Part shown: positions 3,126 to 33,550 of the stretch, in pieces
Layout of the letters: each line of letters begins with the position of its first letter
How positions within the stretch are numbered: position 1 is the stretch's first letter
Assembly: GCF_056712565.1 (NCBI RefSeq)
Contig: NZ_CM160072.1
Reading direction: 5' to 3' (one strand)
DNA length: 64,000 nucleotides
The notes under the pieces: model-generated
What the model was told of the DNA's origin: nothing
The model's database searches: none
The model's input: only the letters and a program-made list of their open reading frames with translations
Program-made: the position numbers and the translations under genes

Positions 3126-3176
3126 CGGGAATACTCATTTTTAATTGGTAACAGCAGTTTACCTGCTTTTATGTCT

Positions 3177-3644: not shown

Positions 3645-3808
3645 AACATCCTTACACTTCATTGGTTAATGAAATGTTGATTTTATGCTTCTTTGTTGTT
3701 GGTTTCTACTTTAGGAAGGGATAACTAACGGCTATGGAGTTAAGTATGTAAAATAGCCCGCAGAAAAATATTCACCTTATCAATAATTCGTTACGGAGAA
3801 CACGAGCG

Positions 3809-4678
3809 ATGCGGACTCTGCAGGGCTGGTTGTTGCCGGTGTTTATGTTGCCTATGGCAGTATATGCACAAGAGGCAACGGTGAAAGAGGTGCATGACGC
3901 GCCAGCGGTGCGTGGCAGTATTATCGCCAATATGCTGCAGGAGCATGACAATCCGTTCACCCTTTATCCTTATGACACCAACTACATCATCTACACCCAA
4001 ACCAGCGATCTGAATAAAGAAGCGATTGCCAGTTACGACTGGGCGGAAAACGCGCGTAAGGATGAAGTAAAGTTCCAGTTGAGCCTGGCGTTTCCGCTGT
4101 GGCGTGGGATTTTGGGGCCAAACTCTGTACTGGGCGCCTCCTACACACAGAAATCCTGGTGGCAGCTTTCTAATAGCGATGAGTCATCACCGTTTCGTGA
4201 AACTAACTACGAACCGCAATTGTTCCTCGGTTTTGCCACGGATTACAACTTTGCTGGCTGGACGCTGCGCGATGTGGAAATGGGCTACAACCACGACTCA
4301 AACGGGCGTTCAGACCCGACTTCCCGCAGCTGGAACCGCCTTTATACCCGCCTGATGGCAGAAAACGGTAACTGGCTGGTAGAGGTGAAGCCGTGGTATG
4401 TGGTGGGGAATACGGACGATAACCCGGACATCACCAAATATATGGGTTACTACCAGCTTAAAATCGGCTATCACCTCGGTGATGCGGTACTGAGCGCGAA
4501 AGGGCAGTACAACTGGAACACCGGTTACGGCGGCGCGGAGTTAGGCTTAAGCTACCCGATCACCAAACATGTGCGCCTTTATACTCAGGTTTACAGCGGT
4601 TACGGCGAATCGCTCATCGACTATAACTTCAACCAGACCCGCGTTGGTGTGGGAGTTATGCTAAACGACCTGTTTTGA
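3809..4678 (+). CDS. pldA: Outer-membrane phospholipase A
   Basis: 289 aa with signal peptide MRTLQGWLLPVFMLPMAVYAQEA and a C-terminal beta-barrel ending ...VGVGVMLNDLF; matches recalled PldA. Confidence 0.95.
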   Translation: MRTLQGWLLPVFMLPMAVYAQEATVKEVHDAPAVRGSIIANMLQEHDNPFTLYPYDTNYIIYTQTSDLNKEAIASYDWAENARKDEVKFQLSLAFPLWRGILGPNSVLGASYTQKSWWQLSNSDESSPFRETNYEPQLFLGFATDYNFAGWTLRDVEMGYNHDSNGRSDPTSRSWNRLYTRLMAENGNWLVEVKPWYVVGNTDDNPDITKYMGYYQLKIGYHLGDAVLSAKGQYNWNTGYGGAELGLSYPITKHVRLYTQVYSGYGESLIDYNFNQTRVGVGVMLNDLF

Positions 4679-4753
4679 TGAATGGTTGGCAAATCTGGAA
4701 TCCAGCATCCAGGATTACCCTCTCAGAGACTAAAAGCATTGCAGTTTCTCGCG

Positions 4754-6632: not shown

Positions 6633-6695
6633 TCAGCAGCATAAAAAAGTGCCAGGATGAAGACTCCGTAAACGTTTCCCCCGCGAGTCTAATGT

Positions 6696-7316
6696 ATGTT
6701 GATGTTATTCCTCACCGTCGCCATGGTGCACATTGTGGCGCTTATGAGCCCCGGTCCCGATTTCTTTTTTGTCTCTCAGACCGCTGTTAGTCGTTCCCGT
6801 AAAGAAGCGATGATGGGCGTGCTGGGCATTACCTGCGGCGTAATGGTTTGGGCTGGGATTGCGTTGCTTGGCCTACATTTGATTATCGAAAAAATGGCCT
6901 GGCTGCATACGCTGATTATGGTGGGCGGTGGCCTGTATCTCTGCTGGATGGGTTACCAGATGCTACGTGGTGCACTGAAAAAAGAGGTTGTTTCTGCCCC
7001 TGCGCCACAAGTCGAACTGGCGAAAAGCGGGCGCAGTTTTCTTAAGGGCTTACTGACCAATCTCGCGAACCCTAAAGCGATTATCTACTTTGGTTCGGTG
7101 TTCTCGCTGTTTGTCGGTGATAATGTCGGCACCACCGAACGCTGGGGCATTTTCGCGTTGATTATTGTCGAAACACTGGCGTGGTTTACCGTCGTTGCCA
7201 GCCTGTTTGCTCTGCCGCAAATGCGCCGTGGTTATCAACGTCTGGCGAAGTGGATTGATGGTTTTGCCGGGGCGTTATTTGCCGGATTTGGCATTCATTT
7301 GATTATTTCGCGTTAA
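6696..7316 (+). CDS. rhtC: Threonine efflux protein RhtC (LysE family)
   Basis: 206 aa; matches recalled RhtC sequence. Confidence 0.93.
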   Translation: MLMLFLTVAMVHIVALMSPGPDFFFVSQTAVSRSRKEAMMGVLGITCGVMVWAGIALLGLHLIIEKMAWLHTLIMVGGGLYLCWMGYQMLRGALKKEVVSAPAPQVELAKSGRSFLKGLLTNLANPKAIIYFGSVFSLFVGDNVGTTERWGIFALIIVETLAWFTVVASLFALPQMRRGYQRLAKWIDGFAGALFAGFGIHLIISR

Positions 7317-14301: not shown

Positions 14302-14562
14302 TTATTTATTCTCACGTTGCACGAGATTGTATCCCTTTTCACTAACGTGGTAGTGAGGCATAGACTTATGCCCGCTATCCTCAATAATAACCAAACCTTC
14401 GTTAGCTAATTTGTTAACAATATTAACAACATTACCGAATCCTGGTATTTGCCTTATGGATAGTGTGCGATCGAGATTCATCCAGTTCCAGTTTATATCT
14501 TTCTCAGTCATAACGTTCAGCACGTTAAGTTCATTTTTAGTGATCACGATATTCTGTACCAA
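14302..14562 (-). CDS. Putative immunity protein, copy 2 (86 aa)
   Basis: Paralogue of the adjacent 85-aa ORF (shared blocks NVL.VM.EKDI.W.WM.LDRTL.IR.IP.FGNV.NIV.KL...GLV); sits downstream of the toxin domain in AT-rich DNA. Confidence 0.6.
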   Translation of the reverse strand: MVQNIVITKNELNVLNVMTEKDINWNWMNLDRTLSIRQIPGFGNVVNIVNKLANEGLVIIEDSGHKSMPHYHVSEKGYNLVQRENK

Positions 14563-14621: not shown

Positions 14622-14879
14622 TCAGAAGAGGTTGTCTTGTTGTTCTTTGATAAGATTCAATCCATATTGAGAAACTCTGTAGCGTGGTTTAGAGTTGCCC
14701 TCACCATTTACGATATCAACCAACCCATGATTAACCAGCTTTGTTACGATATTCGCTACGTTGCCAAATTCTGGAATATTTCGTATAGCTAAAGTACGAT
14801 CCAGCACCATCCAGCTCCAGTCAATATCTTTCTCAGCCATAACTTTCAGCACGTTAAATTCAACTATCGTAATCGTCAT
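14622..14879 (-). CDS. Putative cognate immunity protein, copy 1 (85 aa)
   Basis: Start overlaps the stop of the upstream toxin-domain ORF by 4 bp (ATGA), the classic toxin-immunity arrangement. Confidence 0.65.
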   Translation of the reverse strand: MTITIVEFNVLKVMAEKDIDWSWMVLDRTLAIRNIPEFGNVANIVTKLVNHGLVDIVNGEGNSKPRYRVSQYGLNLIKEQQDNLF

Positions 14880-16009
14880 TTTTTTGCATCCGGATGAAAT
14901 AAGTCAGTATCTTTAATTTTAAAGTCTTCTAGAGTTGCAGTATGTGCATTATTCCATAATTCATATCCATCTAAACCATTCGGTTCACCTGTTTCCCATC
15001 CTAAATTACAATAACGCTGATACTCGCGGCATTCATGAGTATAGTAGTTCAGATCGTATTTTTCAGGAAGCAATTCTTTATTTGCTATTTTTTTTAGCCT
15101 TGAAATCATTACATCATTAGCTGGATCATGATCAAATCTGGAGATATGCTTTTCAACAATAGCGATACCTTCCCTATTGATTGTTACGCCATCTATCGTC
15201 AGGTTTTCTATTGGACCACCGGCAAGGTCGGGATTAAATGGTCTTCCTGATACTGCTCCTCTGGCTCCGAAATGCTCAAATGATTCCAAATCAGGGAATC
15301 TCATTCTTCCCAGAACAACTCCAGCAACTATTGAAGCACCAGCGATGAGTAACCCTTTGTTATCCATAACTTGATCGTAACCAGCAGGTGCATCTCCTCC
15401 CAACTTGTTTGCTGTTTCCCTGAATCCTTCGATATTCCCATTGTATATGCCGCCAGCAGCAAGCAGTCTGCCAACCGCTTTACTATTGAGTGTTTTGAGG
15501 CCATTATTATCTTTAGTTTTTTGCCGTGGTATAAACAGACGGTTGTAGTTATCGGGAAATGCCAAATGACTAAATTCAGTATTAGCAATCAGATGCCTGG
15601 AGAGTATATATTCATAACTGACAGTGATGGTTTCTGTATCCAGATTGTTCTCAGTAAACAGGTGATTGATTGCTGATAAGAGCGCGCCGCGGAGTTGAAT
15701 GTTGTAATATTTCTCCTATCGACCAAATCTATTGATCCGATAGAAGTCAAACTCCATGAACAACTGCTCGTTATTGTTAATAGCGTTAATAAGTAACGGG
15801 GAGCTTTTGTCAATCAACTTACAGAAACTAAGGCCATGTAATTGTGACCCTTTGCCTGTATTCGTAATACTATTAGATAGCGAGAACGCGAAGATTTCAT
15901 CTTCATGGCCAATCTGCCAGCGATTACCTATTGATGCGCTCGTTCCGCAACGAGAGGAAATACATCCTTGTTGTTCTCCGGTTATGGTCAGGTAAATTTC
16001 ATCACTCAT
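14876..16009 (-). pseudogene. Hcp-toxin fusion (Hcp-ET-like T6SS tube protein with C-terminal extension) interrupted by an in-frame TAG
   Basis: N-terminal 97 aa (MSDEIYLTITGEQQG...GHEDEIF...KLIDKSSPLL...FYRIN) are Hcp-like; an in-frame TAG at 15716-15718 is followed without further stops by an approx. 280-aa extension (frame checked codon by codon). The 229-aa C-terminal ORF 14876-15565 is the toxin-domain portion. Confidence 0.7.
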
Positions 16010-16493
16010 CTTTGATGAACTCTCTTTATTGCTTGATGTTTTAAAAATAAACAATATTGCTATTTGTTTATAATTATTTACTCCTCAAGTTAATGGATTT
16101 AAATATGGGAAATAAAATGTTTCACTTTAGACCAGTTTTCATGAGGAAAATCTGTAATCATTAATAATAAACATGAATATTTTGCAGTGATTAATATTTG
16201 TTATGAATATAATCTATAACAATGAAGAGTTATCAGTTGTTCGGTGTATAGCCAGAGACGAGTTCAGTTTGTGATTTTTACAGGGCAGTTACAGCCGCAA
16301 AATTTTATGGCTGATTTCACCTTCCCCTCAAGCTTATCTTTCTTAAAAAGAGAAATAATTCTTAAATTCAAATAGTTATATACAATCTACTCTCTTTCTT
16401 GTGACTAGCTTCACATTTCATACTGATGCATTGGAATGAAATAAAATTTCATGAGATTTTGTGTTTGAGAAAAATTATTTCATTAGGTGTGAA

Positions 16494-17051
16494 ATGGACG
16501 CAAAGCTGTACATCACTGAGATCATCAATGAATTAACCTTCGTTAAGGACTCTATCCGTGAGGATGACTGCACCAAATTGATCGACGCTATTCAGCAAAG
16601 CCAGCGCGTTTTCTGCTATGGCCTGGGGCGTGCCGGCTTTTCCATGAAAGCCTTCACCATGCGCCTGATGCATATGGGCAAAGAGGTTTACTTCCTGACG
16701 GAAACCATTACGCCGAACTTTGGGCCTGGCGATCTGTTTATCGTTTCTTCCGCTTCCGGTGAGACAGCACAACTGGTGGCACTGGCGAAAAAAGCACGTC
16801 AGTTTGGCGGCGCTGTGGCGGTGTTAACCACGAATCGACACGCCACTATCACCGAGTTTGTCGACGTCATCGTGCAAATCAATGCCCCTTCCAAAAATCA
16901 AAAAGATTCTGTTTTCCGCTCGGCACAGCCGATGGCGTCGTTGTATGAGCAAGCTTTGCTGGTGATTGCCGATGCATTAGTGATGAAGATGGCTGCTGAA
17001 AGCGGTGCGCCGGAAAGTGAACTGTTTAAGCGCCACGCCAATCTGGAATAG
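16494..17051 (+). CDS. SIS-domain sugar-phosphate isomerase (6-phospho-3-hexuloisomerase-like)
   Basis: About 185 aa from MDAKLYITEI; SIS signatures GLGRAG and SSASGET; first gene of the PTS operon. ORF track starts 11 codons upstream. Confidence 0.7.
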   Translation: MDAKLYITEIINELTFVKDSIREDDCTKLIDAIQQSQRVFCYGLGRAGFSMKAFTMRLMHMGKEVYFLTETITPNFGPGDLFIVSSASGETAQLVALAKKARQFGGAVAVLTTNRHATITEFVDVIVQINAPSKNQKDSVFRSAQPMASLYEQALLVIADALVMKMAAESGAPESELFKRHANLE

Positions 17052-17092
17052 TCGTCGCCGTTATTTGCTCGATACCCTACAGGAGAATAAAA

Positions 17093-18601
17093 ATGAGCAA
17101 AAAAATAACATCCTTGTTTAACTTCAAGAAGTTGCAGAAATTTTCTTCTGCTCTGATGTTACCAATCGCCATTCTTCCGGCGGCGGGTTTGATTTTAGCC
17201 ATCGGGATTTCATTTAACATTGAGCTGCTGGCGAATTGCGGCGGCCTGATTTTCGCCAACCTTCCTTTGCTGTTTTGTGTCGGTATTGTGATTGGCCTGA
17301 CAGGTGATGGTTCTTCATCACTTTCAGCGATTATCAGCTACATGATCATGAATGCCACGATGGGAACGCAACTTGGCATTACCGCGGAGTCCGTTGCAGC
17401 CAGTAACGGTGACTATGCGATGATCCTCGGGGTACCGACGTTACAAACGGGAGTGTTTGGCGGTTTGATTGTCGCCATCTTTGTTTATCTGCTCTATACC
17501 CGCTTCCACAATATTGAATTGCCTCAGTTTCTTGGTTTCTTCGGTGGAAAACGCTTTGTACCGATTATTACGGCGGTGGCGGCAATTATTGTCGGCTATT
17601 TATTGCCGTGGCTGTGGATACCGGTACAAAAAGGTCTGGCGTCGCTTTCAACGCTGGTGACCAGTGGGCATAACGCGAACTTCGCGGCCTTTATTTACGC
17701 CGTTGGCGAACGTTCGCTGATTCCTTTTGGCCTGCATCATATCTGGAACGTGCCGTTTTATTACAACTTTGGCGACTACATGACCAAATCCGGGCAACTG
17801 GTGACGGGCGATATTCCGGTGTTCTTTGCCCAATTGCGCGACGGTGTTCCGTTGACGGCGGGGTTGTTTATGACAGGTCGTTTCCCAATCATGATGTTTG
17901 CGTTACCTGCCGCCGCGTTGGCGATGTATCAGGAAGCAAAACCGGAACGTAAGGCGCTGATTAAAGGCCTTTTACTCTCCGGTGCGCTGACCACATTTGT
18001 TACCGGGATTACGGAGCCGCTGGAATATGCATTTTTGTTTGCAGCTCCGGTTCTCTACATCATTCACATCTTCTTATATGCCACTTCATTTGTGCTGATG
18101 AACATCCTGAATGTGCACATTGGTCATCCTTTTGCTGGCGGTCTTATTGATTTCGTACTGAATGGCGTTATGCCAAACCGCACGCCGTGGTATCTGGTGT
18201 TCCTGGCAGGCGCGGGCTATGCAGCGATTTACTACACCGTATTTCGGGTACTGATCCGCAAGTTGAATCTGAAAACACCGGGACGTGAGGATGAAGAGAT
18301 TGCCGTTGCAACCACATTAACGCGCGAAGAACGTCCATACCAAATCATCGAGGCAGTAGGTGGTTTCGACAATATCGAAGATGTGGATGCCTGCGCAACA
18401 CGCCTGAGGCTGGCGCTGGTAGACGATAAGAAAGTGAATGAAAAACGGCTGAAGGAGTTGGGGGCTGCGGGTTTAGTGAAACTGGGTGATGGCGGTGTAC
18501 AGGTGATATTTGGCGGCAAATCGCAAATCCTGCGCGACGAAATCAAAACCGTAATGAGCAGACCGCGCCCGACAGAAATGACAGTGGCCTGTGCTAACTA
18601 A
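17093..18601 (+). CDS. PTS glucose-family EIICB component
   Basis: 502 aa; EIIC motif GITEPLEYAFLF and C-terminal EIIB domain with phosphorylatable Cys in ACATRLRL. Confidence 0.8.
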   Translation: MSKKITSLFNFKKLQKFSSALMLPIAILPAAGLILAIGISFNIELLANCGGLIFANLPLLFCVGIVIGLTGDGSSSLSAIISYMIMNATMGTQLGITAESVAASNGDYAMILGVPTLQTGVFGGLIVAIFVYLLYTRFHNIELPQFLGFFGGKRFVPIITAVAAIIVGYLLPWLWIPVQKGLASLSTLVTSGHNANFAAFIYAVGERSLIPFGLHHIWNVPFYYNFGDYMTKSGQLVTGDIPVFFAQLRDGVPLTAGLFMTGRFPIMMFALPAAALAMYQEAKPERKALIKGLLLSGALTTFVTGITEPLEYAFLFAAPVLYIIHIFLYATSFVLMNILNVHIGHPFAGGLIDFVLNGVMPNRTPWYLVFLAGAGYAAIYYTVFRVLIRKLNLKTPGREDEEIAVATTLTREERPYQIIEAVGGFDNIEDVDACATRLRLALVDDKKVNEKRLKELGAAGLVKLGDGGVQVIFGGKSQILRDEIKTVMSRPRPTEMTVACAN

Positions 18602-18651
18602 TTCGAGATTAGCGGGCTGGTTTCAGCCCGCCAGACAGAGAGAGCTGAAGT

Positions 18652-20649
18652 ATGAATTCACAATTACTGGCTAACGCCATCCGAATGTTAAGTGTTGATG
18701 CGATCCAGAAAGCGAACTCCGGTCATCCGGGCGCGCCGATGGGGATGGCGGATATTGCCGAAGTGGTCTGGCGTCGTCACCTGCGTCATAACCCAAAAAA
18801 TCCGCAGTGGTTTAACCGCGACCGCTATATTCAGTCGAACGGGCACGGTTCCATGTTGATTTACGCTTTGCTGCATCTTACAGGCTACGACCTGTCGATG
18901 GATGATATTCGCGACTTTCGTCAGCTCCACTCCCGCACGCCAGGTCATCCAGAATATGGTTATACGCCGGGTGTTGAAACCACCACCGGCCCGTTGGGGC
19001 AGGGCGTAGCTAATGCGGTGGGGATGGCGATTGCGGAGAAGGCGCTGGCGGCAGAATTTAACAAACCGGGCTTTAATATTGTTGATCATCACACATGGCT
19101 ATTTTTGGGTGATGGCTGCCTGATGGAAGGGATCTCCCACGAGGCCTGTGGTCTTGCAGGAACGCTGAAGCTCGGCAATCTGATTGCTATCTGGGACGAT
19201 AACGGTATTTCGATCGATGGTCACGTAGAAGGCTGGTTTGCTGAAGATACGGCTGCCCGTTTTCGTGCCTACGGCTGGCATGTCATTGAAGGCGTTGATG
19301 GTCACGATCCAGAAGAGGTAGATGCTGCGGTGCGTGAAGCGAAAAGCGTCACGGATAAGCCCAGTCTGCTGTGCTGCAAAACGATTATCGGTTTTGGTTC
19401 GCCAAATAAAGCCAACAGCCACGATTGCCACGGCTCGGCGCTGGGTGCAGATGAAGTGGCGCTGGTGCGTGAACGTCTGCAATGGCCGTATGCCCCTTTC
19501 GAAATTCCTGGTGAAATTTATGCCGCATGGGATGCGACCGAGAAAGGCGCGCAGGTTCAACAGGAATGGGATGCACTGTTTGCTGACTACGCGAAGCAGT
19601 GGCCGGAACTGGCGGCGGAGTTTACTCGTCGCATGAAGGGTGATTTGCCTGCTGGCTGGGCCGAGAATATGCAGAAATATGTGCACGATCTGCAATCCCA
19701 TCCGGCGGCGCTGGCAACCCGTCAGGTCAGCCAGAAATGCCTCAATCACTTCGCGGATATGCTGCCGGAACTGATGGGCGGCTCGGCGGACTTGTCGCCC
19801 TCTAACCTGACTCGCCATCAGAAATCGGTTGATTTCACCGGGGAAAATCCGGCGGGGAATTACATCTCCTATGGCGTGCGTGAATTTGGTATGTCGGCCA
19901 TCATGAACGGTCTTGCGCTGCATGGTGGGTTTATCCCTTACGGCGGTACTTTCCTGATGTTTATGGAATATGCGCGTAATGCACTGCGCATGGCGGCGCT
20001 GATGAAGATCCGCTCGGTGTTTGTTTATACCCACGATACCATCGGCCTGGGCGAAGACGGCCCGACACATCAGCCCGTTGAGCAACTGGCGTCGCTGCGT
20101 CTGACGCCGAATATGGAAACCTGGCGCGGTTGCGATCAGGTGGAAGTGGCGGTAGCCTGGCAACAGGCGATTGAGCGCAAAGATGGCCCAACGTCGTTGG
20201 TATTAACGCGCCAACCTCTGGCGCAACAGCCGCGCACCGCTGCACAGTTGGCAGAGATTGCGCGTGGTGGTTATGTACTGAGTGATTGTGACGGTCAGCC
20301 TGAGATGATCCTCATTTCTGCGGGTTCAGAGATTGAGTTAGTGGTCAGCGCCGCAAAAGCGTTAACGGAAGAAGGGCGTAAAGTTCGCGTGGTTTCCATG
20401 CCGTGTACCGAGCGTTTCGATAATCAGGATGCGGCGTACAAAGAGTCGGTATTGCCAAAAGCTGTACGCAAACGTCTGGCGGTAGAAGCCAGCATCGCCG
20501 GATTCTGGGAACGCTACGTCGGCCTGGACGGTAAAGTGATCGGCATGACGAGCTTTGGTGAGTCTGCTCCGGCGAATGTGTTGTTCAAACACTTTGGTTT
20601 TACGCCGGAAAATGTCCTGGCGCAGGCGCGTGAGCTACTGAACAGCTAA
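18652..20649 (+). CDS. Transketolase (additional paralogue, TktA/TktB-like)
   Basis: 665 aa; N-terminus ...[18 protein letters not shown] and ThDP-binding GDGCLMEG motif; clearly homologous to TktA but in an accessory context. Confidence 0.85.
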
Positions 20650-20678
20650 ACCTGCACAAGGGGTGAAAGGATGACCTT

Positions 20679-21524
20679 TTACCCCTTGAAACGGGAGCCA
20701 AGAAACTCTTCACGGGTGCGGTATTTCTCGTAATGCGCCTTGTTTTTATACATAAACAACAGCACCAGCATATCAATAACGCCCATTGCCGGAACGCGAG
20801 TGGAGTCGAAGGCTTCAAAGAAGATTTTATCGCTGACCGCGGTATTGAGTTGATGGGTGGAGAGTTTTGATAACGGAGATTTAATATAGTTAGTGATACA
20901 AACGGATTTGGCACCGCGCTCTTTCACCACTTTAAAGATATCGACCATTAAGTTGGTGCTGCCAGAGTTAGAAATACCAATCGCCAGGTCACGTTTCCCC
21001 ATAGAATATGCCGCATTAATTTGCATTTCCGGGCTGACGTGAACAACGGTTTTTAATCCGAGTTGGCTGAATTTATAAGCACCATAAACGGCCAGAGGGT
21101 TTGAATTTCCGGCAGCAAAAAAGAAAATAGTGTCGCAATTAGCAAGTAGTTTGAGAATGGACTCAAGCACTTCGGCATTAAAAAATTGCGTTGATTGTAT
21201 TAAATCTTCGGCCTGTTTTTTTAATAAAAATGTGGCCAGCGACGTTATATCGGTAAAATCGGTATTATCAGGATAGCTATTGTCAGGATTAATGACTTCT
21301 TTTGCTAATGCAATTTTTAAATGGTAATAACCCTGATAACCTAATTTCTTACAGGTGCGTACGATAGTCGCTTCACTGGCATGGCTTTTTTCTGATAGTT
21401 CAGTGACACTATAGTTCACGACTTCATGTGCGTGGCTAAGAATATAGTCAGCGACCTTTTTTTCCGCCTGATGCAGTGTAGGGTAATTGCTTTGAATCAG
21501 ACTTTTTACGGTTATGTTATTCAT
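20679..21524 (-). CDS. RpiR/MurR-family regulator (HTH + SIS)
   Basis: 281 aa; N-terminal HTH (LSEKSHASEATIVRTCKKLGYQGY) and C-terminal SIS domain; convergent with the PTS-transketolase operon. Confidence 0.8.
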   Translation of the reverse strand: MNNITVKSLIQSNYPTLHQAEKKVADYILSHAHEVVNYSVTELSEKSHASEATIVRTCKKLGYQGYYHLKIALAKEVINPDNSYPDNTDFTDITSLATFLLKKQAEDLIQSTQFFNAEVLESILKLLANCDTIFFFAAGNSNPLAVYGAYKFSQLGLKTVVHVSPEMQINAAYSMGKRDLAIGISNSGSTNLMVDIFKVVKERGAKSVCITNYIKSPLSKLSTHQLNTAVSDKIFFEAFDSTRVPAMGVIDMLVLLFMYKNKAHYEKYRTREEFLGSRFKG

Positions 21525-21724
21525 AATTAGTAAATTTCATTCTGACAGAAAGTGCTGATTATAACATAGTTTTCAGGCGTGGATAGGTGTGAAAAAAATG
21601 AAGGTGTGCAGTGAACGTAATGATTAACAGACCGGTTAATTTTCATGAATTACGTCAACTGCACAAAAATAATTTAAACGGGTGCTCTAATTAAAGCAAA
21701 ACTTATATTTTTATCATTGTATTG

Positions 21725-22630
21725 TCAATTAAATACAAATTGTGTCATTAATTGTGGGTTTCTTAAATATTCTATGCACCACTGACAGGCTTTGCCCATA
21801 CCATCGGAACGAGCGGCAAGAAATAACTTGGTGGCGTGTTTATGTTCGCGCATTGGCTTTTTAAGCAATTTACCGCTGTTCAATAACGGCAATGCCAGAT
21901 GATGTGGAATATAACCAATACCGACGTTTTGTTCTATTAAGGCGATTGCCGTAGCGAAGTCAGGAACAAAAATGGGTTTTTGTCCTTCCAACAACCAGGC
22001 TTGCATCGGGGGGAAGTTAACGGAGGTATCGCGGATACAAATCGCTGGATAGTGACGCAATTCACTGTTTTCTAATGGATGCCGCTTCGCTGCCAGTGGG
22101 TGGAGTGGGCTGACGACAAAATCCCATTCCATTTGTCCGACCGGTTCGCTAATGATGCCTTCACTGCTTGGTACTGCATGAGGAGCACCGTAGACCAGAT
22201 CAGCACGCTTACTGTACAGCGCATCCCAGCAGCCGTTGTATACCTCAAGATCTACCGTCAGTGTTGTTGATGTGAATTGCCGTTCAAAATCTCGAATAAA
22301 TGCCACCAGCAAATCACCAGGAATAATATTGTTCACCGCAATTGTCAGTTCACGCTCAATACCATCGTGAATCAGCACTGTGTTGCGCTTTAATGCTTCC
22401 AGGTCGCCAAGAATAGTTTTGCTATGTTCGATGAAGTAACTTCCCGCTGGCGATAATTCAATATAGCGTCCCTTACGAATGAACAGTTCAACGCCCAGGC
22501 TCTCTTCCGCTTTCTTGATGGTGTAACTGATGGCGGAAGGGACTTTATTTAACTGCTCGGCTGCGGTGGTAATGCTCTGGTGTCTGGCGACCAGATGAAT
22601 AACACGAAGCGTTTCGTCTGAGATGAACAT
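21725..22630 (-). CDS. LysR-family transcriptional regulator
   Basis: 301 aa; N-terminal HTH (ITTAAEQLNKVPSAISYTIKKAEESLGVELF); immediately downstream of the catabolic operon. Confidence 0.8.
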   Translation of the reverse strand: MFISDETLRVIHLVARHQSITTAAEQLNKVPSAISYTIKKAEESLGVELFIRKGRYIELSPAGSYFIEHSKTILGDLEALKRNTVLIHDGIERELTIAVNNIIPGDLLVAFIRDFERQFTSTTLTVDLEVYNGCWDALYSKRADLVYGAPHAVPSSEGIISEPVGQMEWDFVVSPLHPLAAKRHPLENSELRHYPAICIRDTSVNFPPMQAWLLEGQKPIFVPDFATAIALIEQNVGIGYIPHHLALPLLNSGKLLKKPMREHKHATKLFLAARSDGMGKACQWCIEYLRNPQLMTQFVFN

Positions 22631-22707
22631 AAGGCTCCCTGGTCAGTGGTAAAGTGGCTGAATCTCTCCAGATTCAGCCGTAATCATTGCCTGAGTATAC
22701 CCAGGAA

Positions 22708-23931
22708 TTAGCGGTGTTGACTTGCCCGACTGAGAATCGCATACGCGATACATGCCACCAGAATCGAGTCTACCGAAGGGATCGTCGTCAGGGTGAATAA
22801 GCCTTTTACGGTCATAAAGCCAACCGCTGCGCCTATGATCCATGCTGCGAATGTCAGCACTTTAATCTGTGACTCCTGGGCTAACACTGACTCTTGATAG
22901 CCATTACGGCGATAAAGGAAAAAGTCAGCGATATAAATTCCGGCAACGGGTGGCGTGGCGATACCCAGGAACAGCAGAAACGGAATAAACCACGCCATAA
23001 TATCCATACTGCCTACGATGGCGGAAAGGATACCCAGCGCCACGGTAATCTGCCATTTGGGAAAGCGGGTAAGCAGTGTGGAAACCACCAGCGTGCCCTG
23101 GAACATATTGCCCGCGTTACCGGTGACGCAGGCGAAAATCAACAACAGCGCCGCAGGCAGAACCGCACCGAATACCGCCATCGCACCCAGTAAAGATCCC
23201 TGACCACTAATGGCGCTCGGCGTTGCACCCGCCCAGTAGAGCAGAGGGTAGGCAACCAGAAACGTCACGCCTGCGGCAATCAGCGCATGTTTGCGGTTAT
23301 GCACAAAACTACCGAAATCAGGCAGTGTGGCAACCAGCACAATAATGGTGCCAACAACGGTGGAAACGGCGACACCTGTATTCATCTCCACAATCGCCGC
23401 TGGTACTGCCACTTCGGTATGGGTTGCCACATAGAGGATGTAACACAGCACCAGCGCGATAACCGGCACGGCAACCTGGGCAATTTTTCCCAGAACGGCA
23501 AAGCCAAATGCCGTAGAGGCGACAAAAATGACACAGCCAGCCGCCACTAACAGTGCCAGTGGAACTTCCAGTCCATGTTGAGCCAGTAAGTCATGTACCG
23601 AATGACCAAACATATTGGCGGTAACGGCAATCCAGCCGAACAGACTTATCGCCATCAAAATGTTAATGGCGATGGCCCCTTTTTCGCCAAACGAATATTT
23701 CACAATGCCATACGTTGGCAGGCGGGCTTTTTCTCCCACGCTAATGGTGATGGCTGAAAGTAAGGTCAGAATGACGCCGCCTAACAATACGACGCTAATT
23801 AAACTGCCGCTGGAAAGTTGATTGCCGAGGCTTGAGGATGACAACAGCACAGGTGTGACGGCAATACCCAGCAAAATCATGGCAATACGCAATCCTGATG
23901 CCGTATTCAGATTCTCTTCTTTTTTACGCAT
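22708..23931 (-). CDS. NCS1-family (CodB-like) permease
   Basis: 407-aa polytopic membrane protein with CodB-like architecture; assignment by pattern only. Confidence 0.6.
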   Translation of the reverse strand: MRKKEENLNTASGLRIAMILLGIAVTPVLLSSSSLGNQLSSGSLISVVLLGGVILTLLSAITISVGEKARLPTYGIVKYSFGEKGAIAINILMAISLFGWIAVTANMFGHSVHDLLAQHGLEVPLALLVAAGCVIFVASTAFGFAVLGKIAQVAVPVIALVLCYILYVATHTEVAVPAAIVEMNTGVAVSTVVGTIIVLVATLPDFGSFVHNRKHALIAAGVTFLVAYPLLYWAGATPSAISGQGSLLGAMAVFGAVLPAALLLIFACVTGNAGNMFQGTLVVSTLLTRFPKWQITVALGILSAIVGSMDIMAWFIPFLLFLGIATPPVAGIYIADFFLYRRNGYQESVLAQESQIKVLTFAAWIIGAAVGFMTVKGLFTLTTIPSVDSILVACIAYAILSRASQHR

Positions 23932-23956
23932 AGTATGTTCCCTTTATAAATGCGCG

Positions 23957-24346
23957 TTACACAGTATGAAAATGCCCGGTGTATTTGCGCCAGCTACCCA
24001 GTTCTGTAATTTCCCGTTGGCCTTCGGTCAGCCAGTTTTCTGCCAGTACGCCCAGCACTTCGCTACCATCGGCAAGTTTGATTTTGCCAATTGCCAGCCC
24101 AGCGGGTTCGCTCATTAACAGAGCGGCAAAACTGGCCAGCGGTAATTGCCAAATTTCTACGTCGACGTGTGTTCCTCCTTCATTCACGCGAATCATTCCC
24201 GGATGGCGATCATTAATACTCCACAACCGGTAATGGGCGTCAGTTCGGTCTTCACGGACAAAAATACCGCCCGCTTTTTGCATATTTGGGTTGAGTTCCA
24301 GGCCGCGCATCAGCGTTCCGTTAACGGCTAAAAGCGTTGTAGTCAT
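23957..24346 (-). CDS. AIG2/gamma-glutamyl-cyclotransferase-like protein
   Basis: 129 aa; N-terminus LLAVNGTLMRG resembles the GGCT/AIG2 fold start; assignment tentative. Confidence 0.5.
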   Translation of the reverse strand: MTTTLLAVNGTLMRGLELNPNMQKAGGIFVREDRTDAHYRLWSINDRHPGMIRVNEGGTHVDVEIWQLPLASFAALLMSEPAGLAIGKIKLADGSEVLGVLAENWLTEGQREITELGSWRKYTGHFHTV

Positions 24347-24362
24347 TGTGTTCTCCAGAGAA

Positions 24363-25319
24363 TTAAAGGGTTATCCATGTACCGCTCTGATGCGCCAGGG
24401 CTGCTTTTATGGTTTGCGGTGAAGTAATCAGGCCGCTGGCCTGTTTGCCTTGTTGCTGGCTGGCATTGATGAAATCAACAATGGCTTCCACTTTGGGTTG
24501 CATACTGCCGACACCAAACTGACCTTCCCGCAACAGCGTTTGCGCTTCGGCAACGCTGATAGCGTCGAGCCACTGTTGTTGTGGTGTACCAAAGTTAATC
24601 GCTACTTTTTCTACACCGGTGGGGATCACCAGCAGATCTGCGCCTAACTGACTGGCGAGCAGCGCGGAGGCCAGATCTTTATCGATCACGGCTTCTACAC
24701 CTTTCAGTTGTTGCCCGTCTCGCACCACCGGAATACCGCCGCCGCCGCAGGCAATAACCAGATATCCCTGGCGCACCAGGTGAGCGATGGTGTCGTGCTC
24801 AATAATTTCCAGTGGTGCAGGAGAGGGAACTGTACGCCGCCAACCACGCCCGGCGTCCTCCATCAGCGTCCAGCCGAGTTGTTGTTGGCGTTGTTGGGCC
24901 GTTGCTTCATCGAGAAACGCGCCAATTGGTTTACTGGGGCTGGCGAAAGCATCGTCATGTGGGCTGACTCGCGTTTGTGTCACCAGGGCAATTACCGGTT
25001 TGTTTATGCCACGGCGAGCCAATTCGTTATGCAGCGCTTTCTGGAACATGTAGCCAATTGCACCTTGTGTATCACCCACGGCGTAATCAAGTGGAACCGG
25101 AGAAACTTCGTTACTGGCGAGTTCAGAGCGGCGCAGAATAAAGCCCACCTGCGGGCCATTACCGTGGGTTAGTACCAGGTCCCATCCGGCTTCAACCATA
25201 TCAACGATATGTTGCACGCTTTCCATCACTGCAACATATTGATCGGGAATACTATTGCGTTGCTCGTCCTGAATGAGCGCATTGCCGCCAACCGCGACGA
25301 CAGCCAGTGGCTTAACCAT
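24363..25319 (-). CDS. Carbamate kinase-like protein
   Basis: From MVKPLAVVAVGGNAL...; amino-acid kinase fold with ACGGGGIPVV motif; ORF-track start is a spurious upstream extension. Confidence 0.8.
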   Translation of the reverse strand: MVKPLAVVAVGGNALIQDEQRNSIPDQYVAVMESVQHIVDMVEAGWDLVLTHGNGPQVGFILRRSELASNEVSPVPLDYAVGDTQGAIGYMFQKALHNELARRGINKPVIALVTQTRVSPHDDAFASPSKPIGAFLDEATAQQRQQQLGWTLMEDAGRGWRRTVPSPAPLEIIEHDTIAHLVRQGYLVIACGGGGIPVVRDGQQLKGVEAVIDKDLASALLASQLGADLLVIPTGVEKVAINFGTPQQQWLDAISVAEAQTLLREGQFGVGSMQPKVEAIVDFINASQQQGKQASGLITSPQTIKAALAHQSGTWITL

Positions 25320-26736
25320 GATGGTTCTCCTTTGCGACGATCTCCGCCAGTGCACGTACAGCGGCGACAAAACAGGCCATCGGCGCAGTGGTGATCCCGG
25401 CACCAATTTGCCCGACCCCCGCTTGTTTGTGGGCGATACCCGTATTGATGACCGGTAAAATGCCGCGATCGGTCACTTTACGCGCATCAATTCCTGCTGC
25501 GGTGGGGGCAAAATTGAGGGCTGGAAGTGTAAATGCGGGGTTACCGCCGAGGGTGATGGCTTGCATCCGACGGCTGTTATTGGTGGCATCGGCAGGGGTG
25601 CCTCCCACAAATTTGACGATCGCCGGAGACGACGCCATCGCGAAGCCACCCATACCTGCGGTTTCAGTAATTGCGCTATCACCCAGGTCAGCAGCAGCGT
25701 CGTCAACGCCAAATCCGGGGAAGAACAGACCTTCAACGGCATTGGCAGGAGCCTGGAACCAGCGATCGCTAGTACCGGAAAGCCGAATACCAAAACTCAC
25801 CCCGTTACGCGCCATCACCGTAACCATTGAACTGAACGGTACATTGGCGGCGGCATCCATCATTGCTTTACAGGCGGCCATCGACAGATTGAGGAAGAAG
25901 TGATCGTTACCGGTGATAAATGCCACGACGCGCTGGATATGTTCCTGTGGAAGAGAGCAGGCCAGCAATGCCGGGAGCAGGCGCTTAATCAGCAAACCGG
26001 TAGCGGCAGCATTGCGGTTATGAACTTCATCCCCCATATGCAGCGCCTGCGCCATTAATGGCTTGAGTTCCAGCTCGCCGTGTTGTGCGATTGCTGCTTT
26101 CATTGCCGGCGCCAGTTCATCGCGCATCCAGGCCAGACGATTGAGAACTTCATCGTTATTGGCGCCAAAACGGAGAACCTTACCCAGACCTTCATTGAAA
26201 TTGCTAAAAGTACGATGGCCGTTGGTTTTGTTTTCTACCACCCATAACGGCATCGACGGGCTGATGATGCCTGCCATTGGGCCAACCGCGTGATAATGAT
26301 GACAAGGGGCAAGGTCGATTTCGCCTGCGTTTATTTGGTTTTCAGCGTCTTGCTGGCTGGTGGCCCAACCTTCGTACAGCATGGCACCAATAATCGCCCC
26401 TTTTACCGGACCACACATCTCTTCCCAGGCAATCGGCGGGCCAGAGTGCAAAATACGTTTTTGTTCAGCCATTGCTGGAATGGCCTCTTTAGCGAGCATG
26501 ACATCCACCAGCATGGGCTGTGCTTCGAGATAACGTGTCATGGCGATTTGGTTGGCATTTTCTACCAGGGGATGACGTAGCAACGATGCCAGATCCAATC
26601 CAGCGTCAATATCGCCTTGTGCTGGTGGCTGCCAGTTGAGTGCAATTGCGCTTCCCCCGGCATGTTGAATATTGTCAGCAAAACTGTGTAGTCCCGCGTT
26701 CACAACCTTCAAAGGCTGATTAAATAAGGTATTCAT
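25312..26736 (-). CDS. YlbE-like (DUF1116) protein
   Basis: About 474 aa from MNTLFNQPL; start overlaps the fdrA-like stop by 4 bp; paralogous to the K-12 allantoin-region ylbE. Confidence 0.7.
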   Translation of the reverse strand: MNTLFNQPLKVVNAGLHSFADNIQHAGGSAIALNWQPPAQGDIDAGLDLASLLRHPLVENANQIAMTRYLEAQPMLVDVMLAKEAIPAMAEQKRILHSGPPIAWEEMCGPVKGAIIGAMLYEGWATSQQDAENQINAGEIDLAPCHHYHAVGPMAGIISPSMPLWVVENKTNGHRTFSNFNEGLGKVLRFGANNDEVLNRLAWMRDELAPAMKAAIAQHGELELKPLMAQALHMGDEVHNRNAAATGLLIKRLLPALLACSLPQEHIQRVVAFITGNDHFFLNLSMAACKAMMDAAANVPFSSMVTVMARNGVSFGIRLSGTSDRWFQAPANAVEGLFFPGFGVDDAAADLGDSAITETAGMGGFAMASSPAIVKFVGGTPADATNNSRRMQAITLGGNPAFTLPALNFAPTAAGIDARKVTDRGILPVINTGIAHKQAGVGQIGAGITTAPMACFVAAVRALAEIVAKENHHG

Positions 26737-28292
26737 GCGTTTAGCCCCTTTTTCTGCAACTGAGTCTGTGCAACGGTGCTGGCCCATAGCGCCGCCTGTG
26801 CATTGCTGCTGGCGATGATGACCCCTGCATTTTGTAGTGCTCTTATCTGCTGACTGCGTATTTGCGGATCAGCTTCCGTTCCGCAAACGTGCGCAATCAG
26901 CAACGGTGCGTTATTCATGTCGATGTGTGAAAGTTGGTCCAGTAATTCGCTGGCAGGCGCCGTGGAAGCGCCATAACCAAGTACCAGGTCGAATAACACG
27001 ACGGCAGTGTGTGAGTCGTTGAGTTCGTTGAGCAGACGTTGATTGCGCAGAGTCGGGTCGATCATTGGATGCGGTTTGCCACGGGTGAAATCATCGTCGC
27101 CCATATCGATCAACGTGTGATCTTCGCTTTGCCAGATATTTGCCAGAGCACGATTACCCGCAACTGGCGTATTGGAAGCTGCGCTGAATCCCTTTTGTTG
27201 GCAGATAAGTTGCGCTTCGTAGCAGAAGGTTCCTCCGGCGAAAACACCGCGTATCGCCTGGCGATGGGCTGGCAGGCGCTGACAGGCGTTTTGTAACATT
27301 GTGAGATCGGCGCAGGAAATCTCGGTCTCGACAGCCGGAAGTGGCTGAGCATTCAGTAACGCTACGGCGATATTTGCGGCGCTGGCAAGTGTGGTGGCCG
27401 CGGTGATATTGGGACGTGCCAGATCATGCGGATTCGCACCGAGGAAATTCACCACCACGGGTTTTCCACAAGCCTCGGCGCGCTCCAGAATAGTCTGGGC
27501 AACGATCGGTGAAGGCGGTTTTGAAATCAGCACAATCACGCGAGTTTCATCGTCTTGCGCCAGCGCATCTAAAGCGAAGAGCATCGATATTCCACCAATC
27601 TCTTCACTGAGATCATGCCCACCGGTTCCCAACGCCTGAGAAATACCCGCTCCGAGCTGGTCGATTCGGCAAGTCACTTCCTGTAGCCCGGTGCCTGACG
27701 CGCCAATAACACCAATTGCTCCGCGTTTCACCACATTAGCGAAGCCTAACGGAATGCCGTTAACAATGGCGGTTCCACAGTCAGGTCCCATTACGATGCG
27801 CTGACGTTCTCGGGCAAGCGTTTTGATAGATTTTTCCTGCCCGATACTGACGTTATCGCTGAACATCATCACGTTCATTCCGAGGTTTAACGCTTTAATT
27901 GCTTCGGCGGCGGCGTAGTCTCCCGGTACAGAAATGAGTGCCAGGTTGGCTTCGGGTTCGGCTTCCAGTGCCATTTCCAGGCTGACCTTTTCCGGTGTTT
28001 TAATGCCACTATCCGTTTCATCATCGGGTTTGCTGGTCAGACGTTGCTGGGCCAGTACCAGTGCTTCATTGCAAATATCTTCTTCACCCATGACTGCAAT
28101 CACTAAATCATTGGGACTGGCGTTGATTTCGTTACCCAGACCCGCATCGCGCAATTGTTCGAGATTATTGGGCGTTCCCATGACGACCGAGGCCTGTTGA
28201 ATACCGGGCAACTTGCTGATTTGCGCGGAAATCTGCATCAGAGAAACTGAGTCCTGATAAAGATTACTGAAAACTTTATATTTAACTTTCAT
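26733..28292 (-). CDS. FdrA-like protein (CoA-binding, succinyl-CoA-synthetase-alpha-like)
   Basis: 519 aa; resembles FdrA of the K-12 allantoin region. Confidence 0.75.
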   Translation of the reverse strand: MKVKYKVFSNLYQDSVSLMQISAQISKLPGIQQASVVMGTPNNLEQLRDAGLGNEINASPNDLVIAVMGEEDICNEALVLAQQRLTSKPDDETDSGIKTPEKVSLEMALEAEPEANLALISVPGDYAAAEAIKALNLGMNVMMFSDNVSIGQEKSIKTLARERQRIVMGPDCGTAIVNGIPLGFANVVKRGAIGVIGASGTGLQEVTCRIDQLGAGISQALGTGGHDLSEEIGGISMLFALDALAQDDETRVIVLISKPPSPIVAQTILERAEACGKPVVVNFLGANPHDLARPNITAATTLASAANIAVALLNAQPLPAVETEISCADLTMLQNACQRLPAHRQAIRGVFAGGTFCYEAQLICQQKGFSAASNTPVAGNRALANIWQSEDHTLIDMGDDDFTRGKPHPMIDPTLRNQRLLNELNDSHTAVVLFDLVLGYGASTAPASELLDQLSHIDMNNAPLLIAHVCGTEADPQIRSQQIRALQNAGVIIASSNAQAALWASTVAQTQLQKKGLNA

Positions 28293-28386
28293 GCTGTTAC
28301 GCCTGTTTCATTCCGCCCGATAGCAAAATTCGGGCAAAGCATCCCCGTGTAGCCCCATAAACGGGCTACGGGAGAAAAGGTTGAAA

Positions 28387-29247
28387 TCAATTCATGGTGT
28401 TCAGGGTTCGAAAGCCATGCAGCATTCCTGCAAGGCAATCTACTCCTGACGTTGCGCCAAATTGCATGACCTGTTCTGCACAGGATGCGATTGTCATTGC
28501 CGATGCGCTCCCAACCAGTTGTGCGAGTAACTGGCAAATCGGTTCTGAAAAATGTCCCTGAAGCGCACGCTCCAGATAATGACGACTGATATCCGTGGTG
28601 TTGTGCGCATGTTGATCAATTGCCTGCTGCAACCGGTATTGATGATCGGCAAGTGGTGCAGGGAGTTGCCATAACCAGAGCGCTGCCAGATAGCCCAACA
28701 AATAGTCATCTCCATCGGGCGTTAAGCCTTTACCAAAGCCGATCAGTTGTGGCACCTGGCGTTCCAGCGCATCTGGATGCTCCATAATTGCTAATCCCTG
28801 GTGCGTGAGACTATCCGGCAGGTGCAATGTGCTTTGAACGTTATGTTCCAGACAAAATAAAAGCCGTTGCGATGCCATCGTTGGGTAGTGCTGGAAAACC
28901 AAAGGGAATGCCTCAAGTGTCAGCATTCTCCCCACAAATGGCGACTGCCAGAGCGTTGCGTTTTCGAGCGCCACACAAAATCGAGGTGTCCGCAGTAAGC
29001 CTTGGGTTAACTGAATGGGATCTGAATGGGCAATCTCTCTTCGCCAGTCCCAACATTCAGGTAGCCAGACTCTGGCAGCATCAGGGAGATTCAGATACGT
29101 TTGCGCACACAACAGAGTGATGAATGTTCCCGCGTCTGAATACAGATTTACCGCATGTTTAAAAGCGCTATGTAGACGTAAATCTTGCGTTTCATTCTGC
29201 GGGAAAAGATATCCCAACGACGATGCGCAAAGCGTAACCTGTACCAT
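28387..29247 (-). CDS. YlbF-like (DUF2877) protein
   Basis: 286 aa; position and size consistent with the third member of the FdrA/YlbE/YlbF triad; family call by context. Confidence 0.55.
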   Translation of the reverse strand: MVQVTLCASSLGYLFPQNETQDLRLHSAFKHAVNLYSDAGTFITLLCAQTYLNLPDAARVWLPECWDWRREIAHSDPIQLTQGLLRTPRFCVALENATLWQSPFVGRMLTLEAFPLVFQHYPTMASQRLLFCLEHNVQSTLHLPDSLTHQGLAIMEHPDALERQVPQLIGFGKGLTPDGDDYLLGYLAALWLWQLPAPLADHQYRLQQAIDQHAHNTTDISRHYLERALQGHFSEPICQLLAQLVGSASAMTIASCAEQVMQFGATSGVDCLAGMLHGFRTLNTMN

Positions 29248-29252
29248 CGGCG

Positions 29253-29921
29253 TTAGCCTTCCAGACCTGCAATAATGGCTTTGGAATCAGTAACCCAACC
29301 GAAAATGGCACCTTGTGCTTTGATCATCTCGAGGGCGTATTTCTGGAATTCCGGGAAATAGGAGCCGACACAATCTTCCGGGATAATGCATTCATAGCCA
29401 CGATCATTTGCTTCGCGCACGGTGGTGGTTACGCAAACTTCGGTTGTTACACCACAAACTATCAGCGTCTTGATACCGTGGTTTTGCAAAATCAGATGTA
29501 AGTCGGTTTGATAAAACGCGCCTTTGCCAGGCTTATCAATCACCGGTTCGCCTGCCACCGGGTACAGTTCAGGAATGATGTCATGACCTGCTTCACCTCT
29601 GACCAGAATGCGTCCCATCGGTCCTGGTTCACCAATAAAGGTTTTTCCGCCGCGCGTCAGTTTGGCTGGCGGGCAGTCGCTTAAGTCTGCACGATGGCCT
29701 TCACGAGTATGAATAACCATAATTCCTTTTTGACGTGCGGCTGCCAGCACCTCTGTACATGGTGCGATAGCCGTGCGTACCAGTGAAACATCATTGCCCA
29801 GAGCCTCACCGAAGCCCCCTGCTTCGACAAAGTCACGCTGCATGTCGATCATGACCAGTGCAGTTGTGCGCGGATCAAAAGGTAATTCAAAGGGTTGAGC
29901 CTGAAAAATGGATTGCGTCAT
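29253..29921 (-). CDS. Isochorismatase-family cysteine hydrolase (RutB-like amidohydrolase)
   Basis: 222 aa; motifs ALVMIDMQ, LIVCGVTTEVCVTTT and AIFGWVTD parallel the RutB catalytic triad regions; first gene of the operon. Confidence 0.8.
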   Translation of the reverse strand: MTQSIFQAQPFELPFDPRTTALVMIDMQRDFVEAGGFGEALGNDVSLVRTAIAPCTEVLAAARQKGIMVIHTREGHRADLSDCPPAKLTRGGKTFIGEPGPMGRILVRGEAGHDIIPELYPVAGEPVIDKPGKGAFYQTDLHLILQNHGIKTLIVCGVTTEVCVTTTVREANDRGYECIIPEDCVGSYFPEFQKYALEMIKAQGAIFGWVTDSKAIIAGLEG

Positions 29922-30177
29922 GGTAAATCTCCTGTCTGATGTTTAAACGATCCAGTTGTTCTGAGAACGAGTATTCAGGAGAAAAGCGACACAAAACAGG
30001 AAAAAAGTTTGCCGCACAGCAACGAAATTTTTGCATTCAGCAGGTGGTGTGATGACGAATGTGAAGGGAGTCAAAGAGTGGCATACAGCAACAAATTTTT
30101 TGATGCTGTATGGTTTTGAGATTAAAAAAATCGTTGAAATTGTGTGAGCTTAATCATCAGATTTAGCGACTATGGCG

Positions 30178-33538: not shown

Positions 33539-33550
33539 TGCTGGCCCCTG

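Follow-up and report, generated by a model that had tools for sequence, protein, structure and literature searches.

The tkt1 gene cluster and its proteins

Within a 64,000-nucleotide stretch of contig NZ_CM160072.1 (RefSeq assembly GCF_056712565.1), which we refer to as the window, the list of open reading frames (ORFs) contains a cluster of four intact genes that encode a SIS-domain protein, a phosphotransferase system (PTS) EIICB permease, a transketolase, and an RpiR-family regulator. The first is an hxlB-like gene (16494..17051, plus strand), which encodes a single-SIS-domain protein of the 6-phospho-3-hexuloisomerase family with 185 amino acids (aa; TIGR03127). After a gap of 41 bp, it is followed on the same strand by the gene for a 502-aa glucose-family PTS EIICB permease without an EIIA domain (17093..18601; TIGR02002) and, after a further 50 bp, by tkt1, which encodes a full-length transketolase of 665 aa (18652..20649; TIGR00232). 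Converging on tkt1 from the minus strand is a gene for a 281-aa RpiR/MurR-family regulator with HTH_6 and SIS domains and matches to the HexR, MurR, and AlsR models (20679..21524); the stop codons of the two convergent genes are 29 bp apart. The NCBIfam matches of the four proteins are far beyond chance. Both the ORF list and the family models agree with the first-pass annotation of this DNA, in which three co-directional genes with short gaps face a convergent RpiR gene. That annotation had started the hxlB-like gene at a GTG at 16461 (ORF 16461..17051), a position that falls within the conserved operator region of the gene. We place the start at the ATG at 16494 because this is the RefSeq start, the homologues have a uniform length of 185 aa, and the ribosome-binding site is conserved in Klebsiella and Serratia. 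The ratios of nonsynonymous to synonymous changes between strain ATCC 11775 and a sequence type 131 (ST131) strain, which are based on small counts, were 0.06 for the SIS gene, 0.03 for the PTS gene, 0.09 for tkt1, and 0.11 for rpiR, and point to purifying selection on all four genes within Escherichia coli.

The locus is not new: the cluster belongs to the tkt1 genomic island that has been published for extraintestinal pathogenic E. coli of phylogroup B2, an origin that the first-pass annotation had not recognized. Over 5.4 kb, the sequence is 100% identical to that of E. coli ATCC 11775, in which the region is located between metE and ysgA. In the window, metE ends at 14133, and ysgA comes after the island in the identical ATCC 11775 record. 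In K-12, ysgA directly follows metE with no cluster between them, as expected from the annotation's claim that the cluster is absent from K-12 at this site. A 16-kb “tkt1 genomic island” was described at this position by Li et al. (2012, BMC Microbiol 12:51; PMC3349570). Both published tkt1 polymerase chain reaction primers match exactly within the 665-aa ORF (19937-19956, plus strand, and 20420-20439, minus strand), and the published ORF table corresponds gene for gene to the RefSeq annotation of the identical region. The reported order of the island is a sugar isomerase, a PTS IIBC, tkt1, two regulators, a permease, a carbamate kinase, yahG/F/E-like genes, and an isochorismatase-like gene, and the island was found to be strongly associated with avian, urinary, and meningitis isolates of phylogroup B2 (PMC3349570). 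The same island is GR 29 in a 2026 paper on the BEN2908 genome, which lists the SIS, PTS, and RpiR genes as uncharacterized sugar-metabolism genes (PMC12928451). In a metagenomic study, hxlB was among the markers of uropathogenic clades. The cluster matches no characterized sugar operon. Literature searches for hexuloisomerases together with transketolase, PTS, or MocA, and for the APEC O1 locus tags, returned no functional study besides that of Li et al. (2012) and no study naming a substrate of the tkt1 operon.

Tkt1 matches TIGR00232 over its full length (1008 bits; cut-off, 682) and has the same length and domain order as E. coli TktA and TktB. It is 69% identical to TktA and 65% identical to TktB, compared to 75% between TktA and TktB, and is thus an extra paralogue besides tktA and tktB, as had been proposed, rather than a near-identical copy of tktA. 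Identity of only 69% at the protein level also rules out an assembly duplication of tktA. Li et al. (2012) emphasized 68% identity to Vibrio TktA; Tkt1 is equally close to E. coli TktA. A small tree, corresponding to the phylogeny that had been suggested as a check, places a Tkt1 clade as sister to TktA/TktB. This clade consists of Tkt1, the transketolase of the Klebsiella island (87% identical), and a SIS-linked metagenomic transketolase (70%). Residues H25, H65, H99, D154, N184, I186, H260, R357, S384, E411, F434, F437, Y440, H461, D469, H473, and R520 are invariant in the alignment of Tkt1, TktA, and TktB, and all E. coli TktA residues with a known role in binding thiamin diphosphate, the metal, or the substrate phosphate or in catalysis are kept in Tkt1. 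The Tkt1 clade has conservative substitutions near H261, S385, H461, and R520 (A263S, A383S, S463T, S519T, and N522P). Given this conservation, Tkt1 looks catalytically competent.

The SIS protein passes the HxlB model TIGR03127 (204.6 bits; cut-off, 160). Its closest solved structure is Bacillus subtilis YckF/HxlB (1m3s; E value, 9e-39), to which it aligns end to end, and it keeps the SxSGET loop and the C-terminal HANLE motif of that protein. A database protein of 187 aa (P0042), in which the first ~62 residues are identical to the E. coli SIS protein and are followed by unrelated hexuloisomerase sequence, is probably a chimeric assembly.

The permease gene carries the RefSeq name ptsG, and its product passes the glucose-specific IIBC model PTS-II-BC-glcB (TIGR02002; 608.6 bits, cut-off 591.8), with a score of 443 bits against the E. 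coli PtsG equivalog model NF008301, below the cut-off of 647. The protein is 44% identical to E. coli PtsG in a published comparison (PMC12928451) and ~50-55% identical to proteins annotated as clostridial glucose permeases. Its orthologues in Fusobacteriota and Actinomycetota are 62-70% identical, far above its similarity to E. coli PtsG. It can be placed in the glucose family and may or may not be specific for glucose. Precomputed Pfam domains are EIIC and EIIB only, with no EIIA; a GITEP motif is at residue 305, and the EIIB cysteine is Cys434 in CATRLR. EIIA is fused to the permease in the actinobacterial orthologues and encoded by a separate gene in L097, a contig related to Sebaldella. 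The E. coli permease presumably uses Crr.

The regulator has full-length matches to HexR, MurR, and AlsR with E values of 1e-23 to 1e-31, all below the equivalog cut-offs, and its orthologues carry the Pfam domains HTH_6 and SIS. Identity to these orthologues is 78% for Klebsiella, 68% for Serratia, and 42-48% for Sebaldella and L097, and all of them lie within the same cluster. The MurP-MurQ-MurR system of E. coli, which acts on N-acetylmuramic acid, has the same architecture: a glucose-family EIIBC without EIIA, a SIS-domain 6-phosphosugar enzyme, and an RpiR-family repressor. The present cluster differs from it in that the SIS enzyme belongs to the hexuloisomerase family rather than being an etherase (the MurQ model scores only 19 bits) and in the addition of a transketolase.

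The operon is preceded by an AT-rich leader of 440 bp. A perfect CRP core, TGTGA-N6-TCACA (TGTGACTAGCTTCACA), lies at 16400..16415 on the plus strand, 79-94 bp ahead of the start codon of the SIS gene. No other exact match occurs in the window, for which chance predicts 0.10 matches, and the TGTGA half-site is invariant in the upstream regions of Klebsiella and Serratia. CRP binding at this site is inferred from the consensus. Downstream of it, inverted-repeat and pattern searches identified an operator-like palindrome, ATGAAATAAAATTTCAT (GAAA-N5-TTTC), at 16436..16452, 56 bp before the start codon, that overlaps a TAAAAT -10-like hexamer. A second operator-like copy of the motif, GAAAAATTATTTCAT, is at 16469..16483 on the plus strand, 25 bp before the start codon. 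The motifs are at -56 and -25 in E. coli, Klebsiella, and Serratia alike, and a pattern search found none in the promoter regions of the oxidoreductase operons that adjoin the module in Klebsiella and Serratia. We tentatively assign them to RpiR because it is the only regulator common to the E. coli, Klebsiella, Serratia, Sebaldella, and L097 clusters. An inverted-repeat search found a hairpin between tkt1 and rpiR, which converge here (20657..20688; CAAGGGGTGAAAGG / CCTTTTACCCCTTG), with a 14-bp stem that is 93% complementary and a 4-nt loop, a probable bidirectional terminator. Direct inspection and a search for repeats revealed the CRP site and the hairpin, both of which were missed by consensus promoter and terminator scans. 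These scans gave no enrichment over shuffled sequences, and the terminator scan did not call the hairpin because it lacks a T-run on the plus strand.

Related gene sets in other bacteria

Related clusters occur in several phyla. In Klebsiella, genes for a SIS protein (80% identical), PTS permease (90%), and transketolase (87%) face an rpiR gene (78%). The module of Serratia ficaria consists of SIS (71%), PTS (84%), and RpiR (68%) genes, with no transketolase gene. In both genera, the module adjoins a gene for an SgrR-like regulator and an operon for a GFO/IDH/MocA (GFO) oxidoreductase, an AP_endonuc_2 TIM-barrel protein, an α/β-hydrolase, and a MOFRL-type glycerate 2-kinase. The Klebsiella locus (L090) is flanked, at 828-4701 and 5458-6696, by genes for an OLD-family ATPase/nuclease and a UvrD-type helicase, which resemble a Gabija-like defense pair, and for ankyrin-repeat proteins, and this module is therefore in a variable, probably mobile region.

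More distant loci combine these genes in different ways. In Sebaldella, the order is SIS-TktN-TktC-PTS-RpiR, with no GFO genes upstream and a contig that ends 395 bp after the rpiR gene. The related contig L097 carries glycerate kinase and DeoR genes and the series TIM-GFO-hydrolase-SIS-TktN-TktC-PTS-RpiB-EIIA-RpiR. Rhodococcus koreensis has a GntR gene and SIS-PTS-HPr-EI-GFO-TIM-hydrolase-Tkt, and a Glutamicibacter-like contig has a GntR gene and SIS-PTS-GFO-TIM-hydrolase-HPr-EI. A Lachnospiraceae genome encodes the SIS protein, a split transketolase, and the GFO, TIM-barrel, and hydrolase proteins, with an ATP-binding cassette (ABC) transporter and a ROK kinase in place of the PTS. Smaller sets were found in an Olsenella genome, in which SIS-TktN-TktC faces an RpiR gene, and in a proteobacterial metagenomic contig (L008), which has a LysR gene and Tkt-SIS. 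In the metagenomic contig L096, the order is PTS-GFO-TIM-hydrolase-glycerate kinase-ROK. The permease is thus accompanied there by only the oxidoreductase, TIM-barrel, hydrolase, and glycerate-kinase branch, and therefore each branch can stand with the permease.

The PTS, SIS, GFO, and TIM-barrel genes are orthologous among these loci, with identities across phyla of 62-70% for the PTS permease and 46-51% for the SIS protein. The transketolases are of three different types: full-length proteobacterial, full-length actinobacterial (44%), and split (~35%). The glycerate kinases belong to two unrelated families, MOFRL and PF02595. The repeated, independent recruitment of different types of transketolase and glycerate kinase argues that these activities are what the pathway needs. 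E. coli is without the GFO, TIM-barrel, hydrolase, and glycerate-kinase genes seen beside the module in most other taxa, and E. coli, and apparently Sebaldella too, carries only a minimal SIS-Tkt-PTS-RpiR branch of a wider gene set.

A hexulose-phosphate synthase gene is a common neighbor of ordinary hxlB genes. We scanned genome contigs with the SIS alignment, and the matches listed were distant homologues with 35-49% identity and no enterobacterial relatives; among these, 65 of 80 hxlB loci have the synthase gene directly upstream. In contrast, we found no homologue of the synthase in the 64-kb window or in the Klebsiella, Serratia, L008, Sebaldella, L097, Rhodococcus, or L098 loci. The SIS protein resembles the HxlB member of the HxlA-HxlB pair (ribulose monophosphate pathway) in its match to the HxlB model and its alignment to YckF/HxlB, but it has no synthase partner and is encoded with a PTS permease, a transketolase, and an RpiR regulator instead. 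The hexuloisomerase assignment therefore holds at the sequence level only, and the substrate of the SIS protein may differ.

Composition and distribution of the island

We found the four-gene module in 1135 of 5426 complete E. coli genomes, with identities of 95-100%; at least 80% of the cluster was matched in 1133 genomes. All but one of the 1136 matches are chromosomal. Although the tkt1 island was published as a single 16-kb unit, it comprises three independently distributed modules: an Hcp-toxin remnant with small ORFs, the hxlB-ptsG-tkt1/rpiR cluster, and a set of genes from lysR to a cysteine hydrolase. The sugar module proper spans ~16393 to 21746, roughly 5.3 kb. The lysR-to-cysteine hydrolase module occurs in 1559 genomes, including BL21(DE3), in which it directly adjoins metE without tkt1, and it also gives 129 plasmid matches. 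The left-hand Hcp remnant and its small ORFs are complete in 727 genomes only; in the ST131 strain they are absent, and the hxlB-like gene directly follows metE. The sugar module is inserted between metE and an older nitrogen-catabolism module. We found no integrase gene or flanking tRNA site in the window that accounts for insertion of the island, and an Rfam scan of 13.5-31.5 kb found nothing. The only tRNA genes in the window, tRNA-Ile(GAT) and tRNA-Ala(TGC) (57412-57606, 43 bp apart), form the spacer pair typical of rRNA operons; they are 27 kb away from the island and have no bearing on its insertion. Near the right junction of the sugar module (~21747), the rpiR-lysR intergenic region contains a 17-nt inverted repeat with a 27-nt spacer (TGTGCAGTGAACGTAAT / ATTACGTCAACTGCACA; 21605-21665).

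To the left of the sugar module, a gene for a type VI Hcp (TssD) protein with a C-terminal extension (14876-16054, minus strand) is interrupted by an internal stop. The Hcp model recognizes the N-terminal 112 aa with 95 bits, and no family was matched by the C-terminal part of 229 aa. The gene is followed by two paralogous ORFs of ~85 aa that look like immunity genes (14622-14879 and 14302-14562, both minus strand), and the three together look like the remnant of an orphan Hcp toxin and immunity set. To the right, the eight-gene module (21725-30150, minus strand) encodes a PunR/AllS-like LysR regulator, an NCS1 (cytosine-type) permease, a small protein like the C terminus of allophanate hydrolase, carbamate kinase, a DUF1116 protein, FdrA, a DUF2877 protein, and a cysteine hydrolase. 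The K-12 sets of the yahEFG/fdrA-ylbEF type are paralogues of this module, which probably serves to catabolize a nitrogen heterocycle. Farther on, tripartite tricarboxylate transporter genes (TctA/TctB/Bug-type) follow udp (ATCC 11775 record L001, 27749-29401; ~32050-33700 in the window), compared to K-12, in which rmuC is directly after udp with no transporter genes between. These genes seem to correspond to another small islet that Li et al. (2012) mention, their second (PMC3349570).

A proposed sugar route and its alternatives

We consider it somewhat probable, at roughly 0.6, that the cluster is a catabolite-controlled accessory sugar operon that feeds the pentose-phosphate pathway. In the mechanism that we propose, cAMP-CRP would activate the operon, and repression by RpiR would be lifted by a sugar phosphate. 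The EIICB permease would import a glucose-like sugar and phosphorylate it, with the general EIIA-Glc (Crr) as phosphate donor. The SIS enzyme, an orphan of the hexuloisomerase type, would shift the carbonyl to give a 2-ketose phosphate, and Tkt1 would split this product into intermediates of the pentose-phosphate pathway. We infer the dependence on Crr, control by CRP and RpiR, the order of the reactions, and a substrate other than plain glucose. The coupling of PTS, isomerase, and transketolase suggested by the first-pass annotation gains support from the recurrence of the gene set in other phyla and from the perfect CRP site upstream.

The same logic is known from other systems. Accessory transketolases in PTS operons of Firmicutes, such as the pentitol clusters of Listeria and the ascorbate-type clusters of streptococci, and the isomerase-transketolase pathway for sulfoquinovose share the principle that a sugar phosphate is isomerized to a 2-ketose and passed to a transketolase encoded in the same operon. 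These systems use other permease families and isomerases, and to our knowledge none has a hexuloisomerase-type SIS enzyme.

A broader proposal, to which we give slightly less than even odds, is that the tkt1 operon is the minimal form of a widespread sugar-catabolic pathway in Pseudomonadota, Actinomycetota, Fusobacteriota, and Bacillota, whose substrate would be a sugar that is not known to serve bacteria as a carbon source by this route. The core of this pathway may combine a transketolase and an orphan SIS enzyme of the hexuloisomerase type with a specific PTS permease of the glucose family, or with an ABC transporter and a ROK kinase instead. Frequent additions to this core may be a dehydrogenase of the GFO type, a TIM-barrel enzyme, an α/β-hydrolase, and a glycerate kinase. 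The neighboring genes single out no unique substrate, and several chemistries fit. Compatible substrates, all of them speculative, include 3-keto (3-ulose) sugars, rare hexoses from the allose/psicose series, heptoses that would enter as sedoheptulose-7-phosphate, and a glycosyl-glycerate. Psicose 3-epimerase and RpiB occur in two clusters, which fits the allose/psicose series.

Several observations weigh against an accessory sugar operon. Expression of tkt1 from pBAD, the one published test of Tkt1 as a transketolase, failed to restore growth of a K-12 tktA mutant on L-arabinose, and deletion of tkt1 made no difference to the use of carbon sources on Biolog PM plates (PMC3349570). In addition, the permease passes the cut-off of a glucose-specific model, though it lies just above it, and the E. 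coli gene set may be incomplete for the ancestral substrate. The negative complementation is not decisive because the catalytic residues of Tkt1 are invariant, the part of the paper that describes the experiment reports it without an enzyme assay or expression control, and APEC O1 ΔtktA grew on arabinose, unlike the K-12 tktA mutant (PMC3349570). The Biolog result cannot reveal the sugar of the operon because only tkt1 was deleted and TktA and TktB were still present; a redundant Tkt1 would yield no carbon phenotype under these circumstances. The only difference on the Biolog PM plates was that Δtkt1 made poorer use of Pro-Ala and Phe-Ala as nitrogen sources (PMC3349570).

The match to the glucose model, together with the RefSeq name ptsG, could also mean that the cluster provides a further PTS for ordinary glucose (or glucosamine) along with a booster of the pentose-phosphate pathway. 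The isomerase and Tkt1 would then only raise the flux between fructose-6-phosphate and this pathway, with no new substrate, as would fit the canonical hexuloisomerase product, fructose-6-phosphate, and the retention of all canonical residues in Tkt1. We regard this as unlikely, given that the permease belongs to an orthologue group that is more similar across phyla than to E. coli PtsG or to the annotated clostridial glucose permeases. This group is consistently linked to the orphan SIS gene and mostly also to oxidoreductase, TIM-barrel, and hydrolase genes that are superfluous for glucose, and glucose catabolism has no use for a hexuloisomerase unless there is a source of 3-hexulose. Slightly less likely again is that the operon is an evolutionary remnant of a larger cluster of the Klebsiella type, in which the original sugar is no longer catabolized and the genes are kept by hitchhiking or for a secondary role. 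Klebsiella and Serratia do carry the SgrR-like, GFO, TIM-barrel, hydrolase, and glycerate-kinase genes beside the module, at 78-90% protein identity, and E. coli is without them; the lack of a carbon-source phenotype in Δtkt1 would also be expected of a remnant. However, the nonsynonymous to synonymous ratios are low in all four genes, the motifs in the promoter region are conserved, 1133 genomes carry intact copies of the genes, and Sebaldella has the same minimal SIS-Tkt-PTS-RpiR set, though on a contig that ends shortly after rpiR. A signature-tagged tkt1 mutant was also out-competed in chickens (PMC3349570).

Li et al. (2012) instead interpreted Tkt1 as a protein that does not work as a transketolase and that functions in the use of dipeptides for nitrogen, based on the failed complementation of the K-12 tktA mutant and on the Δtkt1 defect with Pro-Ala and Phe-Ala, which was reproducible and complementable (PMC3349570). 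This is improbable in view of the conserved catalytic, cofactor-binding, and phosphate-binding residues and the location of the gene within a sugar-PTS operon in several phyla. No known transketolase chemistry would free nitrogen from dipeptides, and the growth of APEC O1 ΔtktA on arabinose fits an extra active transketolase. Moreover, the neighboring nitrogen-catabolism module is a separate unit that is present without tkt1 in BL21(DE3). Finally, a hexuloisomerase combined with a transketolase recalls the ribulose monophosphate cycle, of which transketolase is a part, and could suggest a role in formaldehyde detoxification or assimilation, as would the match of the SIS protein to the HxlB model. 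This is very improbable, and we reject it because this SIS clade has no synthase gene: none is present in the window or beside any member of the clade, compared to the synthase directly upstream in most of the ordinary hxlB loci among the matches listed. The linkage is instead to a sugar PTS and a CRP site.

The tkt1 locus had already been published, and the main new evidence presented here comes from comparative genomics. The analysis moves the question away from an odd transketolase tied to the use of dipeptide nitrogen. tkt1 is a marker of phylogroup-B2 extraintestinal E. coli, and, if the proposed route is true, identification of the substrate would explain why extraintestinal pathogenic strains of this phylogroup keep the island. 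If the sugar is derived from the host or its microbiota, the operon would contribute to the nutritional fitness of a major lineage of pathogens.

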